A DNA stretch of 32,000 nt from Trichlorobacter lovleyi SZ (GTDB taxonomy: Bacteria > Desulfobacterota > Desulfuromonadia > Geobacterales > Pseudopelobacteraceae). The stretch is taken from NCBI RefSeq assembly GCF_000020385.1, contig NC_010814.1, positions 930,001 through 962,000 on the forward strand, given 5' to 3'. The position numbers were made by a program, and so were the translations under genes. Of the stretch, positions 22,179 through 25,298 are shown in pieces. The notes beneath the pieces were generated by a model. The model was not told the DNA's origin. It was given only the letters and a program-made list of their open reading frames with translations, and ran no database searches. The stretch's first letter is position 1. Every line of letters begins with the position of its first letter.

Positions 22179-25100
22179 ATGCCCTTTAATCATTCAGACT
22201 GGATACGGCTTCCGTTAGCCTCATCAGCACTGTACCTTGCCCCGGGACAGCCTGCCTGGTTTGTTCCCACGGCAGAGGGGGATCGCCTGCTCTGCTCAGC
22301 GGCCTCCGGCGCTGTTCTGCAGGACAGTGACTCACAACTGTTTCTGCAGCGGCTGCCAAAAGGTACGCCGGCTGTCTATCCGGGCAGAGAACTGCTGCTG
22401 CCCAGGTCTCCCGCATTGCGGGAACTCTGGTTCCATGTCACCGACGCCTGCAACATGAGCTGCAGCCATTGTCTGTTCAGCGCCGGGCCGGGACACTACC
22501 GCCAACTGCCGCTTGATCAGCTGCTGCAGCATGCCGCCACCGCCTACGGATCGCTGGACTGCCGTCTGTTCGCCCTGACCGGCGGAGAGCCGCTGATGTA
22601 TGACGGTTTCAGCCGGTTGATTGAAGGACTGCTGGAACATCAGGATGCTCAGTTGGTGATTTTGAGCAACGGCCTCCTGGCAGACCGGAAGCTTGATCCT
22701 GCCTGGCCCAGGGAGCGGATTCGCCTCCAGATCAGCCTTGACGGTTCACCTGAACAGCATGACGCCGTGCGGGGCAAGGGCAGTTTTGCGTTGCTGCAAA
22801 AACAGCTGCTGTTCCTCAAGGAAAACGGCTGGCAGTTTACCCTCAGCATGTGTCCGACACAGGCCAATCATCAGGATATCCCCTGGCTGGTTGACTTTGC
22901 TGCAGATATGGGGGCGGCAGCGGTTCATTACATGTGGTACTTCATCAGGGGCAGGGGCTCTGAGGAGCAGGCCGTTGCGCCGGTGCAGCTGCTGCCTTTG
23001 CTGGCCGCTGCCATGGAACGCTCTCACAGCAGAGGGGTGCCGATTGACAATCTTGAGGCGATCAGGCAGCGGATCTTCTCGCCGCCGGGCACGATCCATG
23101 ACGGCAGCAGCGCCGGTGTTGAGTCGGCGGCCATCGGGCCTGACAACCGCCTCTATCCCACCGCAGCAACCGTCGGAGTCCGGCAGCTGTCAACCGCTCT
23201 GGAGGCAGGGCTTGCTGCAGCCTGGCAGCAAAGCGAGGTGCTGGCGGAGATACGCCGGACCACAGCAGCTTCGCTCAATACTCCCTGGCGCTACCTCCAT
23301 GGCGGCGGAGACTTTGACCACAGCTATTTCCACGCTGGCAGCTACCAGGGGAGTGATCCCTACCAGCCCCTGATCGAATCGATCTCGCTGCTGCTGATTG
23401 AGCAGGCCGCCAATCGCTTGCCGGAACCGGCCGGAGCAGCCATCCGGCTGAAGATGGGTGAGCTGCTTGAGAACTGCAGCTCCCACGGACCGGTGGCCCT
23501 CTGCCAGAGCAACTGCCTGCTGCATGACACCCGGGACAGCCGTTCCGGGGTGAAGCAGTTCTATGCCGAGGCCGCAGGTGACCGTCGTGCCGATATCCTG
23601 AACCCGGTCTCCTATGCAGACCCGTTGTTAAGCCATATCCCGGCGGAATTCCGTTTTCGCGGCTACGGTTGCGGCAGCCCGATCCTGGATGCCGCCCTGC
23701 AGGCCGGTGAGCGGGTGGTTGATCTCGGCAGCGGCACCGGGGTGGAATGCTTTATCGCTGCCCGCCAGGTTGGTGCTGAAGGGCAGGTAACCGGGGTCGA
23801 TATGCTGGACCCGATGCTGGCACTGGCCAATCGCGGTGCAGAGCAGGTGCGGGCCACGCTCGGTTTCGACAATCTGCGTTTTGTGAAGGGCTATCTGGAG
23901 GCGCTGCCCCTTGAGACAGGCAGCGTTGATGTGCTGGTCTCCAACTGCGTCTTGAACCTGTCGCCGGACAAACGGCGGACCTTTGCCGAGATCTGCCGCG
24001 TGCTGGCTCCGGGTGGCCGGATGGTTGTTGCGGATGTGGTCTGTGAAGATCAGCCACCGGCAGCCATCCTGAATGATGATGAGCTGCGCGGTGAATGCAT
24101 TGCCGGTGCCATGACCCACAAGGATCTGGCCGGTATCGTCGCCGAAAGCGGTCTCTGGCGCTACCGGATCATCCGGCGGCTTCCCTACCGTACCGTCCAG
24201 GGCCATCCCTTTTATTCACTGACCTTCGTGGCTGAAAAGCCTGCTGGTCTGCATGACCTTTGCACGGAAAAGGTCATCTATCCCGGTCCGGCAGAGGCGT
24301 TGAAACTCTCCGGCCAGACCTGGCTCCGGGCCGGTCAACCGGCGTTGATTGCAAAGCAGGAGGCGGAGCTATTCGGGGATCAGCTCTGGAGAATCGATTC
24401 CTTCGGCTTTGTTGACAACGTGGCGATGTCCGGCGGTTCCTGTTGCTCCCAGCCGCCGGAGGCCCACCAGCAGTCTCAACCTGCCAAACCGGCGGAACCG
24501 CAGCACAGCTCCGGCTGCCTGGTCTGCAGTGCCCCGCTGGTCTATACGGCAGCACCCCAGGAAATGACCTGCCACTATTGCGGCGCAGGCGTCAGCAGCC
24601 ACGCAGCCTGCCAGAACGGGCATTTTGTCTGCGACCTGTGCCATATCGGCGACAGCCTGCAGCGTCTGGAACAGCTCTGTAGCAACTCCGGCACGGCAAA
24701 CCCGATGGAGCTGTTCTTACAGATCCGCAATCACCCCTCCTTTCCGCTCCACGGGCCGCAGTACCATGCCCTGGTGCCGGGGGTGTTTCTGGCTGCCCTG
24801 CGTAATGCCGGCCATCCGGTCAGCGATGAGCAGATCAGGACCGCCATCAGCCGCGGTGCGGAGGTGCCGGGCGGGAGCTGCGGTTTCATGGGGGTCTGCG
24901 GCGCTGCAAGCGGTATCGGCATCGCCTTCAGTGTGCTGCTGGAGGCAACTCCGCTCAAGGTCTCCCAGCGTCAGATCGTCCAGCAGGTGGTGCAGCAGGT
25001 GCTGGCAGATATCGCCTCCCAGCAGGCCGCCCGTTGCTGCCAGCGGGATTGCTGGCTGGCGCTGCGCCGTGGCCTCTTGCTGGCCGGTCAGATGTTTGCG

Positions 25101-25298
25101 CTGCCGCTGGAGGAGCTTAAGCCGCTTGCCTGCCGGCAGCTGGACCGGAATAGCGAATGTTCCGGCAACTCCTGTCCGCTCCATCCCGCATCGATCATGC
25201 AGATGCATTTATCAAATCTACAAGAGGTTTTATCAAAAGGATATATGCAGGTAGAACAGCTGATGCAGGTCGTGCTGCAACCGACTGATGTCACTTGA
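22179..25298 (+). CDS. Three-domain fusion: radical SAM domain + ArsM-like SAM-dependent methyltransferase + C-terminal Cys-rich domain (1039 aa)
   Basis: Radical SAM CxxxCxxC at C91/C95/C98 (HVTDACNMSCSHCLF) with LTGGEPL. ArsM-like block YGCGSP...VVDLGSGTGVECFIAARQVGAEGQVTGVDM...VDVLVSNCVLNLSPDKRRTFAEICRVLAPGGRMVVADVV...ECIAGAM (about aa 470-690). C-terminal about aa 777-1010: CLVC...CHYC...C..GHFVCDLCH...HGPQYHALVPGVFL...GSCGFMGVCGAASG. Confidence 0.8.
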   Translation: MPFNHSDWIRLPLASSALYLAPGQPAWFVPTAEGDRLLCSAASGAVLQDSDSQLFLQRLPKGTPAVYPGRELLLPRSPALRELWFHVTDACNMSCSHCLFSAGPGHYRQLPLDQLLQHAATAYGSLDCRLFALTGGEPLMYDGFSRLIEGLLEHQDAQLVILSNGLLADRKLDPAWPRERIRLQISLDGSPEQHDAVRGKGSFALLQKQLLFLKENGWQFTLSMCPTQANHQDIPWLVDFAADMGAAAVHYMWYFIRGRGSEEQAVAPVQLLPLLAAAMERSHSRGVPIDNLEAIRQRIFSPPGTIHDGSSAGVESAAIGPDNRLYPTAATVGVRQLSTALEAGLAAAWQQSEVLAEIRRTTAASLNTPWRYLHGGGDFDHSYFHAGSYQGSDPYQPLIESISLLLIEQAANRLPEPAGAAIRLKMGELLENCSSHGPVALCQSNCLLHDTRDSRSGVKQFYAEAAGDRRADILNPVSYADPLLSHIPAEFRFRGYGCGSPILDAALQAGERVVDLGSGTGVECFIAARQVGAEGQVTGVDMLDPMLALANRGAEQVRATLGFDNLRFVKGYLEALPLETGSVDVLVSNCVLNLSPDKRRTFAEICRVLAPGGRMVVADVVCEDQPPAAILNDDELRGECIAGAMTHKDLAGIVAESGLWRYRIIRRLPYRTVQGHPFYSLTFVAEKPAGLHDLCTEKVIYPGPAEALKLSGQTWLRAGQPALIAKQEAELFGDQLWRIDSFGFVDNVAMSGGSCCSQPPEAHQQSQPAKPAEPQHSSGCLVCSAPLVYTAAPQEMTCHYCGAGVSSHAACQNGHFVCDLCHIGDSLQRLEQLCSNSGTANPMELFLQIRNHPSFPLHGPQYHALVPGVFLAALRNAGHPVSDEQIRTAISRGAEVPGGSCGFMGVCGAASGIGIAFSVLLEATPLKVSQRQIVQQVVQQVLADIASQQAARCCQRDCWLALRRGLLLAGQMFALPLEELKPLACRQLDRNSECSGNSCPLHPASIMQMHLSNLQEVLSKGYMQVEQLMQVVLQPTDVT
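25208..25237. promoter_or_regulatory. Two direct TTTATCAAA repeats spaced 21 bp (candidate UAS for the internal sigma-54 promoter)
   Basis: 25208-25216 and 25229-25237. TTATCAA is the reverse complement of the TTGATAA core found at the other two sigma-54 promoters. The midpoint of the pair is 87 bp from the GG of the 25308 promoter. It lies within the AT-rich last ~30 codons of the 1039-aa ORF. Confidence 0.4.

Follow-up and report, generated by a model that had tools for sequence, protein, structure and literature searches.

Only two radical S-adenosylmethionine (SAM) enzymes are known to form carbon–arsenic (C–As) bonds, namely ArsS in arsenosugar biosynthesis and ArsL in arsinothricin biosynthesis, and each is accompanied by a separate ArsM methyltransferase. 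For ArsS, radical C(adenosyl)–S cleavage in C–As bond formation has been reported. The subject of this analysis is a 32,000-nucleotide stretch of the Trichlorobacter lovleyi SZ genome (NC_010814.1, positions 930,001 to 962,000), referred to in its full length as the window, and herein the gene at 22179–25298 on the forward strand. It encodes a three-domain protein, termed the fusion, which combines a radical SAM domain, an ArsM-like methyltransferase, and a DUF5714 domain. With moderate confidence, and judging from sequence, the fusion is read as a self-contained bifunctional C–As bond-forming enzyme of anaerobes that does the job of ArsM and ArsS together. A literature search found no paper on DUF5714, on the DVU155x genes, or on an ArsM/ArsS fusion, in keeping with the first-pass annotation of this DNA, which was made from the letters alone and knew of no characterized enzyme with this architecture.

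Architecture of the fusion protein

The open reading frame (ORF) starts with ATG and runs without interruption for 1039 amino acids (aa), as the first-pass annotation had claimed, and all motifs quoted there are found in the translation. The N-terminal part contains CNMSCSHC (C91-x3-C95-x2-C98) and LTGGEPL at residues 133–139. The methyltransferase motifs are YGCGSP (C498), DLGSGTGVECF, GVDM, SNCVLNLSPDK (C590), RVLAPGGRMVVADV, and ECIAGAM (C640). A Pro/Gln-rich linker containing CCSQPPEAHQQSQPAKPAEPQ leads to the C-terminal motifs CLVC (C780/C783), CHYC (C798/C801), CDLCH (residues 818–822), HGPQYHALVPG, and GSCGFMGVCGAASG. The ORF has no in-frame UGA and, hence, no selenocysteine.

All three domains were matched in a Pfam scan: Radical_SAM (PF04055, aa 87–240, 60.2 bits against a cut-off of 29.5), Methyltransf_31 (aa 509–648, 101 bits), and DUF5714 (PF18978, aa 831–1001, 196 bits against a cut-off of 26.2, E 3.9e-58, model positions 2–172 of 173). 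The last match settles the identity of a domain that had been called DUF5714-like in the first-pass annotation. A zinc-ribbon–like match spans aa 783–803, and a weak C_GCAxxG_C_C match lies within DUF5714. In an NCBIfam scan, the protein is not assigned to any equivalog model. Its parts are as follows.

22179–25298, forward strand: whole ORF of the three-domain fusion protein, ATG start, 1039 aa
22179–22418, forward strand: N-terminal β-β-β-α-α domain of about 80 residues, aa 1–80 (secondary structure of the AlphaFold2 (AF2) model)
22419–23078, forward strand: radical SAM core, aa 81–300, with C91/C95/C98 as predicted [4Fe-4S] ligands and GGEP at 135–138 (PF04055)
23079–23468, forward strand: SPASM-like C-terminal extension without auxiliary-cluster cysteines, aa 301–430 (Foldseek fold match)
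23469–23543, forward strand: inter-domain segment E-x-C433-x-x-H-G … H-S-N-C446-L-L, aa 431–455, with C433 and C446 invariant
23544–24428, forward strand: ArsM-like methyltransferase, aa 456–750, comprising a Rossmann SAM-binding domain and an ArsM-type C-terminal domain (NCBIfam and PDB alignments)
24429–24512, forward strand: Cys-containing Pro/Gln-rich linker, aa 751–778, with C755-C756 and the invariant C756…P760-E761 (alignments)
24513–25187, forward strand: zinc ribbon and all-α core of DUF5714, aa 779–1003 (Pfam DUF5714, alignments, AF2)

Distribution and conservation of the fusion family

The fusion is a genuine and widely conserved protein. A search of 5.8 billion proteins with a threshold of E ≤ 1e-10 returned 506 relatives. 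Among them, the best 120 have lengths of 994–1066 aa and a query coverage of 96–100%, and the three Pfam domains are present in every one. The names given to the relatives in their sources go no further than "DUF5714 domain-containing protein" or "methyltransferase domain-containing protein." With aa 1–470 as the query, an exhaustive HMMER search gave 93 clusters at the 50% identity level with E ≤ 1e-30. Two finished genomes, those of Syntrophotalea (Pelobacter) carbinolica (CP000142) and Desulfuromonas sp. AOP6, contain the fusion, as does D. acetoxidans. An assembly artefact or frameshift joining separate genes, the caveat attached to the first description, is ruled out by at least 120 full-length clusters and by these complete genomes. 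About 21 full-length loci were found in a scan of one genome per species, with hosts among Desulfuromusa, Desulfobacterales, Maridesulfovibrio, Desulfocapsa, Electrothrix, Desulfogranum japonicum, Eisenbacteria, Phycisphaerae, Planctomycetaceae, and Brocadiaceae.

Conservation was assessed over 17 divergent fusions, down to 33–43% identity and including other phyla. Universally conserved are C91/C95/C98, C433, C446, C498, C590, C640, and C756, followed by C780/783/798/801, C811/H815/C818/C821/H822, H863, C901, C907, R952-C953-C954, C985, C994, and C999. The cysteines at 128, 225, and 622 are not universal.

Several relatives deviate from this layout. The Brocadiaceae locus L021, which gave the impression of a split gene in tblastn, is actually one ORF of 1089 aa with a longer Cys-rich linker; this linker between ArsM and DUF5714 (9300–9600 of that locus) is expanded and packed with CC, CxC, and CSxxxxxCC motifs. 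Fusions of radical SAM and ArsM-like domains without DUF5714, about 780–850 aa long, also exist (P0219, P0227, P0250, P0257, P0264, P0271–P0273, P0278, P0281), and many such relatives end in vicinal-Cys tails (…STGCC, …GPGCC, …NCCGPSCC, …RCCAPEDNGKCC). A reversed order is seen in P0279, P0283, and P0299, where an N-terminal class I methyltransferase precedes a related radical SAM domain and an intact SPASM domain (PF13186 matched); these carry only part of the ArsM cysteine motifs.

The ArsM-like methyltransferase

By its sequence, the methyltransferase of the fusion is of the ArsM clade and not UbiE-like. Its best NCBIfam match is the arsenite methyltransferase PRK11873 (203 bits, aa 471–670), compared with 51 bits for UbiE. 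This match begins at model position 40 and, therefore, the N-terminal segment of ArsM is missing or replaced. The C-terminal half is matched by NF040538, the model of the arsinothricin ArsM, the positions 168–356 of which align with aa 579–757. When aa 441–774 were searched against all PDB sequences, the five best matches were all ArsM (5evj with E 3e-38; 4fr0/4kw7 with E 2e-31), and the next, non-ArsM match was 28 orders of magnitude weaker (E 3e-10). The 5evj alignment covers aa 454–750, and because it reaches residue 750, the ArsM C-terminal domain is present. The assignment to ArsM made at first sight is thereby borne out.

The first-pass annotation had also placed the arsenic ligands of ArsM within the conserved motifs. 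A residue count in the 4fr0 alignment places C498 on C72 of CmArsM (YGCG), C590 on C174 (SNCV), and C640 on C224 (EC-x-GA), and all three are kept in fusions at 33–43% identity. This part of the claim holds; a Cys44 equivalent, however, is absent. C498, C590, and C640 are, thus, predicted As(III) ligands, from which we infer methylation activity. In CmArsM, C44 and C72 are required for the methylation of inorganic As(III) and are dispensable for trivalent methylarsenic (MAs(III)). The first methylation step on inorganic As(III) presumably requires the fourth ArsM cysteine (C44 of CmArsM, C32 of human AS3MT).

The radical SAM part

The CxxxCxxC and GGEPL motifs noted earlier belong to a radical SAM core in which the C91/C95/C98 triad is found in all fusions aligned and G135-G136-E137-P138 is invariant. 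The best NCBIfam match of this domain is the Rv1681 (MoeX) family. An AF2 model of aa 1–480 has a predicted local distance difference test (pLDDT) score of 86.7 and was matched by Foldseek with a probability of 1.00 to 117 radical SAM structures. The fold matches, with E values from 1e-14 to 1e-9, include SkfB (1e-14), CteB, SuiB, anSMEcpe, ChlB, and TigE and, farther away, PqqE, MoaA, and viperin. The topology is SPASM-type, with a target-normalized template modeling (TM) score of 0.68–0.72 to anSMEcpe over 375–386 columns and a query-normalized score of 0.60 to TigE. In the Pfam scan, no SPASM match (PF13186) was obtained, and the fusion alignments, including the 17 divergent members, contain no conserved cysteine between residues 226 and 432. 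According to the model, the domain is, hence, a SPASM-family fold minus the SPASM cysteines, as had been suspected from the sequence.

The N-terminal β-β-β-α-α domain contains the invariant residues W8, R10, W27, R58-L59, and G69-R70. It has no Pfam match over aa 1–85 and no sequence match to PqqD or to a RiPP (ribosomally synthesized and post-translationally modified peptide) recognition element (RRE). In the model, it possibly resembles the RRE-like domain of CteB, SuiB, and TigE, because the Foldseek alignments to these proteins span nearly the whole query (469–476 columns of 480 aa). At the other end, the segment of aa 431–455 has a low pLDDT when modeled without the methyltransferase. Its two invariant cysteines, C433 and C446, are candidates for a metalloid relay or for a substitute of the missing ArsM Cys44.

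Linker, zinc ribbon, and DUF5714 domain

The AF2 model of aa 755–1039 (pLDDT 90.8) consists of a β-ribbon that is followed by an all-α bundle. Compared with 350,542 PDB chains, the zinc ribbon and DUF5714 have no structural relative (best E 1.3, TM 0.15). The zinc-ribbon residues are C780/C783/C798/C801 and C811/H815/C818/C821/H822. In the DUF5714 core, H863, C901, C907 (of a CGAxxG motif), R952-C953-C954, C985, C994, and C999 are invariant, stand-alone and archaeal members included. The model of MbdU, a "metal-binding double selenoprotein" (NF045648), matches aa 754–1010 with its positions 7–274 at 144–146 bits, against a cut-off of 600. MbdU is a DUF5714 selenoprotein, the selenocysteine (Sec) motif of which is given as "CU" in a review table (PMC13188914); this motif would correspond to C953-C954 of the fusion. 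For ArsL, the C-terminal RCCLKC motif was reported to bind arsenite and to matter for activity (bioRxiv 10.1101/2024.02.01.577332). The invariant R-C-C of DUF5714 is, by analogy, a plausible metalloid-binding site because of the RCCLKC motif of ArsL, the CU of MbdU, and the vicinal-Cys tails of the relatives without DUF5714.

Outside the fusion, DUF5714 also stands alone. In the Dehalococcoidales locus L026, a stand-alone copy lies directly upstream of ArsM (360 bits, cut-off 263). The genes of L026 at 1379–5624 comprise arsR (84, cut-off 55), an arsC-like gene, acr3 (439, cut-off 283), and then DUF5714 and arsM, which by these matches is a classical ars operon containing DUF5714. Two small ORFs without a family (80 and 103 aa) lie between acr3 and DUF5714 in this operon. 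The idea that the third domain handles a metal or metalloid, as proposed earlier, gains support from this operon, from the invariant vicinal Cys pair, and from the CC tails of the two-domain relatives.

Stand-alone DUF5714 is found more often in the cassette DVU_1551–1557, namely in L090 and in eight metagenome loci (L125, L158, L163, L169, L124, L131, L143, L166). The cassette of L090 (1609–6410) contains a DVU_1557 redox protein, TrsS (510 bits), a DVU_1556 methyltransferase (175 bits), a DVU_1553 AMP-ligase, and a MocA-like nucleoside triphosphate transferase; genes for XdhC, DUF364, and NTPase_1 lie near it. One DUF5714 of Bathyarchaeota adjoins genes for a tungsten AOR, MobB, and a MoaD-like protein. 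Judged by gene content, at least three settings of DUF5714 can, thus, be distinguished, in which its partners are a radical SAM protein plus a methyltransferase or just a methyltransferase; only some of these settings are demonstrably arsenic-related.

A remote homology between DUF5714 and the Cys-rich C terminus of ArsS was considered and rejected (hhalign probability 0.3%). A six-residue likeness exists at a conserved cysteine, where P-G-G-S-C-G of the fusion (24879–24899, aa 901–907) resembles A-G-S-S-C/U-G of an ArsS tail (L076). The cysteine in this patch is at the Sec position (GxxU) of ArsS selenoproteins; the patch is too short for homology.

Gene neighborhood of the fusion

Neighboring genes were compared over 27 loci by clustering and over 132 neighbor ORFs from 23 loci by a Pfam census, with cut-offs of 134 bits for TIGR04282 and 182 bits for TIGR04283. 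In the unbiased clustering, the TIGR04282/TIGR04283 family is the only one that occurs in more than four of the 27 loci. The census is headed by DUF2064, Glycos_transf_2, and Pyr_redox_2 (five each), with VTT_dom next (three). In L088, a homologue with 66% identity is directly followed by TIGR04283 (187 bits) and TIGR04282 (182 bits), the pair that is labeled "arsenosugar biosynthesis glycosyltransferase." In L002, L006, and L008, the two families are fused to each other beside the fusion gene (TIGR04283, 195–222 bits; TIGR04282, 195–197 bits), which supports the idea that they act together. This single protein is about 430–490 aa long (L002, 12937–14217; L006, 14129–15415; L008, 7815–9275). 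Next to the fusion in L018, TIGR04282 passes with 162 bits, and TIGR04283 is just under its cut-off with 165 bits.

The same genes accompany classical ArsM+ArsS loci. The TIGR04282/TIGR04283 pair occurs there in L029, L053, and L073 and partly in L028, L044, L058, L066, and L078, and a VTT/DedA protein in L040, L044, L052, and L061. Fusion loci without ArsS nearby have the pair in L002, L006, L008, L018, and L088 and VTT in L006, L008, L018, and L081. Altogether, the pair or VTT/DedA lies beside the fusion in six of 26 genome loci. A metagenome set seeded with the DUF5714 alignment contributed 43 confirmed three-domain fusions, 10 of which have the pair, 10 VTT, and 16 (37%) at least one of them; no true ArsS lies near any of these 43 loci. 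Since the same accessories flank both and the fusion loci have no ArsS nearby, the slot of ArsM+ArsS in a TIGR04282/04283–VTT cassette is taken by the fusion, although many copies of the fusion stand alone. The earlier suggestion of a fused analogue of ArsM/ArsS is supported by this equivalence.

Single loci show further neighbors. In S. carbinolica (L081), the fusion is flanked by VTT/DedA and by a TrmO/TsaA-like SAM-dependent methyltransferase (125 bits, cut-off 93), at 9250–9966 and 13049–13600. In Desulfuromonas sp. AOP6 (L085, 14065–15503), an archaeal-type S-adenosylmethionine synthetase (PF01941) and a small 2×[4Fe-4S] ferredoxin lie about 1 kb downstream; they might provide SAM and electrons to an enzyme with a demand of at least two SAM per turnover. 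In Acidobacteriota and Verrucomicrobia metagenome-assembled genomes (MAGs; L030, L034, L039, L070, L074), an Rv1681(MoeX)-like radical SAM gene takes the place of ArsS after ArsM. The gene in L034 scores 107 bits on NF049973, and that in L039 accompanies ArsM from about 3.7 kb upstream. These genes represent a further radical SAM partner of ArsM, one that is apparently undescribed. Orthology of the radical SAM domain of the fusion with the Acidobacteriota genes is not supported (29% identity over the core only).

Proposed mechanism

The identities of the domains, the conserved ligands, the fusion as a genuine protein, and its equivalence within the cassette are established; on this basis, the chemical steps, the substrate, and the order of steps may be envisaged as follows. 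Trivalent arsenic would be captured by the thiols of the C755-C756 linker and of R952-C953-C954 and then be passed to the ArsM-like site. Here, As(III) would be held on C498/C590/C640 and receive methyl groups from SAM. The [4Fe-4S] cluster of C91/C95/C98 would reductively cleave a second SAM, and a SAM-derived carbon radical would be added to the arsenic. This radical would most likely be 5'-deoxyadenosyl, because the accessories are the nucleotidyl-/glycosyl-transferase–like pair of the ArsS cassette, and the product would be a 5'-deoxy-5'-(dimethyl)arsinoyl-adenosine–type compound. C433/C446 may shuttle the arsenical between the two active sites. Alternatively, the radical SAM domain might make an organo-As(III) first and methylation might come second, as in ArsL→ArsM; this order would fit because the Cys44 equivalent is missing.

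In canonical loci, TIGR04282/TIGR04283 and VTT/DedA would process or place the product. In the clade of the window, this accessory role would be filled by a σ54 operon, which is described below and comprises two DUF2064 proteins, a PhnP-like phosphodiesterase, a GNAT protein, a DUF169-ferredoxin, and a flavin reductase-like protein. The end product of this clade may differ from known arsenosugars, since the canonical accessories are swapped for the σ54-controlled set.

A number of observations weigh against the proposed C–As bond-forming function. The score of 203 bits on PRK11873 is below the trusted cut-off of 263, and in place of the Cys44 equivalent, the "TSAC" of CrArsM is aligned with an invariant I-L-N-P-V of the fusion family. 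The radical SAM domain reaches 42.5 bits on the ArsS model, against a cut-off of 300, with 32% identity over 68 residues only, and the C-terminal C-x2-C-x7-C motif of ArsS is missing. For these reasons, the domain is rejected as an ArsS orthologue, the 42.5 bits being confined to the core. DUF5714 is not arsenic-specific, because its stand-alone copies are mostly in the TrsS/DVU_1556 cassette near Mo-cofactor genes. No ars resistance family is among the 25 commonest families neighboring the fusion (132 ORFs, 23 loci). Approximately 63–77% of the fusion loci have neither accessory in the available DNA, and the fusion gene is essentially alone in P. carbinolicus, in Desulfuromonas AOP6, and in several MAGs. 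The "arsenosugar" labels of TIGR04282 and TIGR04283 presumably derive from genomic association. In the window itself, both DUF2064 copies (74 and 79 bits) miss the TIGR04282 cut-off of 134, and there is no TIGR04283.

A more far-reaching reading joins four propositions and is rather doubtful as a whole: DUF5714 would be a soft-metal(loid) carrier of a new fold, the fusion a third independent radical SAM route to C–As bonds, the window product a novel organoarsenical, and the TrsS cassette an analogous system. Herein, the invariant Cys-Cys (Cys-Sec in MbdU) would present the element to the radical SAM and methyltransferase domains. The product of the window would not be a known arsenosugar, arsenolipid, or arsinothricin, and the DVU_1551–1557/TrsS cassette would act on a different element or cofactor.

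Alternative functions

Methylation by ArsM-type enzymes extends to Sb, Se, and Te. The fusion might alkylate or methylate one of these other soft metalloids, with the three-cysteine site and radical SAM alkylation used as proposed for arsenic, which we consider unlikely. The lack of recurring ars resistance genes among the 25 commonest neighbor families would fit such a substrate, as would the selenocysteine members of the ArsS family and of several ArsM-fusion families, which are catalogued in a selenium context (PMC13188914). However, the three cysteines are the exact As(III) ligands of CmArsM, the accessories are common to ArsM+ArsS loci, and the sole resistance-type context found for any component is the arsenic operon L026.

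A similarly low probability is assigned to a function in cofactor or metallocenter maturation, for which DUF5714 would scaffold metal-sulfur species (e.g., related to the Mo/W cofactor, or another thiolate-bound center), the radical SAM and methyltransferase components would act on this center, and arsenic would not be the physiological substrate. The stand-alone DUF5714 of the DVU_1551–1557 cassette, with XdhC nearby and with eight metagenome loci of the same kind, points in this direction, and so do the Bathyarchaeota copy beside tungsten AOR, MobB, and MoaD-like genes, the weak relationship of DUF5714 to C_GCAxxG_C_C, and Rv1681 (MoeX) as the best NCBIfam match of the radical SAM domain. 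Moreover, genes for a TrsS-like protein, a molybdopterin oxidoreductase, MoaC, and MoaB are convergent to the operon both in the window and in L087. This Moa/TrsS block, however, accompanies only the closest relatives (the window and L087, with MoaC also in L096), and the recurrent neighbors of the fusion are accessories of the ArsS cassette. The fusion methyltransferase is of the ArsM clade with three arsenic ligands, whereas DVU_1556 is of a different, shorter family.

Plain detoxification is quite unlikely. Herein, the ArsM domain would methylate and volatilize arsenic, and the radical SAM domain and DUF5714 would be redox or electron-transfer helpers that form no radical C–As bond but, for instance, reduce pentavalent intermediates or the catalytic disulfide in the absence of oxygen. 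The invariance of the radical SAM triad and of GGEP over more than 100 clusters argues for a catalytic domain rather than a relic, and we know of no radical SAM domain that acts as a generic reductase. The context is, furthermore, the one common to ArsS cassettes and not that of ars resistance operons. In favor of detoxification, the usual internal disulfide relay is incomplete without Cys44, DUF5714 resembles a "putative redox-active" family, Pyr_redox_2 is among the commoner neighbors (5 of 132 ORFs), and L026 pairs DUF5714 with a detoxification-type ArsM.

Anaerobic C–As cleavage is very unlikely. In such an O2-independent counterpart of ArsI, the ArsM-like domain would bind methylated arsenicals and the radical SAM domain would break the bond. 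The hosts are anaerobes, no anaerobic C–As lyase is known to us, and a three-cysteine site lacking Cys44 would bind MAs(III), as follows from ArsM mutants; the SAM-binding methyltransferase motifs, however, are intact and conserved, and the common accessories point to biosynthesis. A RiPP maturase, in which the RRE-like N-terminal domain would recruit a precursor peptide for the radical SAM and methyltransferase domains, is extremely unlikely and weakly refuted, for although the closest structures are the RiPP maturases SkfB, CteB, SuiB, TigE, and ChlB and the CteB/SuiB/TigE alignments take in almost all 480 residues including the β3-α N-terminal domain, no small ORF that could be a precursor gene is conserved beside the fusion in 26 loci, aa 1–85 have no RRE/PqqD match, the SPASM auxiliary-cluster cysteines are absent, and the methyltransferase bears cysteines of the metalloid-binding type.

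The operon of the window and its surroundings

In the window, the fusion gene is part of an operon, the order of which is kept in relatives with 69–99% identity (L087, L089, L095, L096). The features on either side of the fusion are as follows.

16431–18137, forward strand: σ54-dependent activator with XylR_N and V4R sensors, an AAA+ σ54-interaction domain, and a Fis-type helix-turn-helix (Pfam Sigma54_activat 241 bits, XylR_N 96 bits, V4R, HTH_8)
18359–18374, forward strand: σ54 (−24/−12) promoter TGGCACAATCATTGCT, 69 nucleotides upstream of ATG 18443
18443–19230, forward strand: DUF2064 protein, copy a, with a CofC/MobA-like nucleotidyltransferase fold (Pfam DUF2064 79.6 bits)
19187–20230, forward strand: DUF169 and 2×[4Fe-4S] ferredoxin protein (Pfam DUF169 204 bits; Fer4_7 and Fer4 at residues 285–342)
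20258–20755, forward strand: GNAT-family N-acetyltransferase (Pfam Acetyltransf_7/_1), adjoining the fusion also in L087, L089, and L095
20752–21564, forward strand: metallo-β-lactamase–fold hydrolase of the PhnP/RNase Z-like phosphodiesterase type (Lactamase_B_2 104 bits; PhnP 122 bits against 272)
21561–22148, forward strand: flavin reductase-like domain protein (Pfam Flavin_Reduct 114 bits)
25308–25323, forward strand: second candidate σ54 site TGGCATGGAGGTTGCT, with one mismatch and the GG/GC dinucleotides intact, 10 nucleotides past the fusion stop
25447–25797, forward strand: 116-aa protein of no recognized family, with homologues of 116–119 aa in the equivalent place of L089 and L087
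25824–26603, forward strand: DUF2064 protein, copy b, a divergent TIGR04282 relative (Pfam DUF2064 78.7 bits; TIGR04282 78.8 against 134)

The activator matches MobR-like and NifA-like NCBIfam models under their equivalog cut-offs and likely regulates the downstream operon. Within the 32-kb window, TGGCAC-N5-TTGCW is matched without a mismatch at TGGCACAATCATTGCT only. The second candidate is weak, given 31 sites in the window at two or fewer mismatches against 24 expected by chance. Copy a of DUF2064 is likewise a divergent relative of TIGR04282 (74 bits, cut-off 134). Its N terminus, MQTSIVIFTRVPK, comes after the promoter, and its true start is probably ATG 18443 and not the TTG at 18268 chosen by the ORF finder, because of the position of the σ54 promoter and the length of the L089 homologue (262 aa). 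The DUF169-ferredoxin, a candidate electron donor, is kept in L089 and L095, and copy b of DUF2064 in L087, L089, L095, and L096. The 116-aa protein has no Pfam or NCBIfam match and is kept only in the closest relatives, and the GNAT protein matched no ArsN model of NCBIfam. As a universal system, these neighbors are rejected: GNAT, metallo-β-lactamase, flavin reductase, DUF169, MoaB/C, and the Mo-oxidoreductase are absent from 21 distant genome loci.

Convergent to this operon, a reverse-strand operon extends over 27161–31992. It encodes a TrsS-like radical SAM protein (31039–31992, cut by the window end; NF045646, 267 bits), a cytoplasmic molybdopterin oxidoreductase (28836–31031, PhsA/Fdh-like, every match below cut-off), a LysE exporter (28173–28802), MoaC (27655–28137), and MoaB (27161–27658). 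The TrsS/Mo block also lies behind the fusion operon in L087 and not in the distant loci. Its adjacency to the fusion may not be accidental, because TrsS partners stand-alone DUF5714 elsewhere.

Farther upstream, the ranges 159–6901 and 9951–13438 contain a molybdopterin oxidoreductase (159–2429), a CCG-domain (HdrD-like) protein, an arylamine N-acetyltransferase, an MFS transporter, MobA (9951–10562), and, on the reverse strand, 3-deoxy-D-arabino-heptulosonate 7-phosphate synthase and an aldehyde dehydrogenase. With MobA and two Mo-enzymes, the window is rich in Mo-cofactor genes. Mobile elements lie at 6981–9219 and 14768–15766, namely an insertion sequence pair of the IS21 type, consisting of a transposase (Mu-transposase C-terminal and rve domains) and an IstB ATPase, and an IS1595-type transposase. 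The GC content falls to 0.45 at 3001–4000. The region may be an island. A plasmid origin is rejected, as no near match was found in PLSDB; the nearest plasmid-borne relatives are annotated arsM, in line with the identity of the methyltransferase. The window contains no riboswitches or tRNAs.

Significance

If the proposed function is true, the fusion represents a third, non-orthologous radical SAM route to C–As bonds, in which radical SAM domain and methyltransferase are joined. Iron- and sulfur-reducing anaerobes widely carry it, including Geobacter, Desulfuromonas, Pelobacter, Desulfobulbales, cable bacteria, anammox bacteria, and other Planctomycetota. In arsenic-rich anoxic sediments, aquifers, and paddy soils, these hosts are dominant, and their complex organoarsenic metabolism is little explored. 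An active fusion would provide a single-gene handle on the production of arsenosugar-type compounds by anaerobes and a natural system in which to study how a toxic, oxidation-sensitive intermediate passes from one SAM-using site to another. It would also give the first functional foothold for DUF5714, which is seen in an ars operon and in the uncharacterized TrsS cassette as well. The idea is directly testable in cultured, genome-sequenced hosts such as S. carbinolica DSM 2380, D. acetoxidans, and Desulfogranum japonicum DSM 18378.

Comparison with known systems

ArsM+ArsS is the closest system. In either case, a methyltransferase of the ArsM type is paired with a radical SAM domain bearing CxxxCxxC, and TIGR04282, TIGR04283, and VTT/DedA stand beside the fusion family in a substantial fraction of loci. 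The fusion, however, is one polypeptide instead of two, and its radical SAM domain is of another subfamily with a SPASM-type fold and an N-terminal β3-α domain. The tail H-C-x-x-C-T-A-G-x-G-S-S-C/U-G-G, which is invariant in 28 ArsS sequences, is absent from it, and a genuine ArsS (L076) scores 419 on TIGR04167 (cut-off 300). DUF5714 is an extra domain that is unrelated to the ArsS C terminus, and the ArsM part differs by its lack of a Cys44 equivalent. The hosts are anaerobes of the Desulfuromonadales, Geobacterales, Desulfobulbales, and Planctomycetota, compared with mainly cyanobacteria and aerobes for ArsM+ArsS.

In the ArsL+ArsM pair of the arsinothricin pathway, ArsL forms the C–As bond with As(III) as its substrate, after which the organo-As(III) is methylated by ArsM. 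Similarities to this pair are the match of the C-terminal half of the methyltransferase to the arsinothricin ArsM model and the Arg-preceded vicinal cysteines, RCCLKC in ArsL and the invariant R-C-C in DUF5714. The radical SAM domain has no RCCLKC tail, and in contrast to the ArsL tail, the R-C-C-Q-R-D(-C) of the fusion lies inside a folded domain of about 225 residues, about 500 residues from the radical SAM domain. No ArsL model is among the best 25 NCBIfam matches of the radical SAM domain, and no ArsL-type gene context was found for the fusion. ArsL's 3-amino-3-carboxypropyl (ACP) radical chemistry cannot be deduced from the sequence of the fusion.

The DVU_1551–1557 cassette contains a radical SAM protein, a class I methyltransferase, DUF5714, and a nucleotidyltransferase-fold protein as well, but as separate genes. 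Its radical SAM protein is Zn-ribbon HMPTM/Tes-like, its methyltransferase is short and not of the ArsM type, and it is associated with XdhC and the Mo cofactor. The SPASM/twitch enzymes anSMEcpe, CteB, SuiB, TigE, SkfB, and PqqE share the fold over the N-terminal 430 residues (E 1e-14 to 1e-10, TM up to 0.71). They differ from the fusion, which has neither the cysteines for auxiliary [4Fe-4S] clusters nor a peptide substrate gene and is joined to a metalloid methyltransferase.

The zinc ribbon and DUF5714 resemble the N-terminal half of MbdU and share the CGAxxG motif with MbdU and C_GCAxxG_C_C, two families without a known function or solved structure. MbdU differs in its C-terminal half, its two selenocysteines, and its lack of an enzyme fusion, and the fusion is far under the MbdU cut-off. 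Compared with all these systems, organoarsenical biosynthesis by a radical SAM enzyme together with ArsM is known; new are a non-orthologous radical SAM domain, its covalent fusion to the methyltransferase, and an added domain of unsolved fold.

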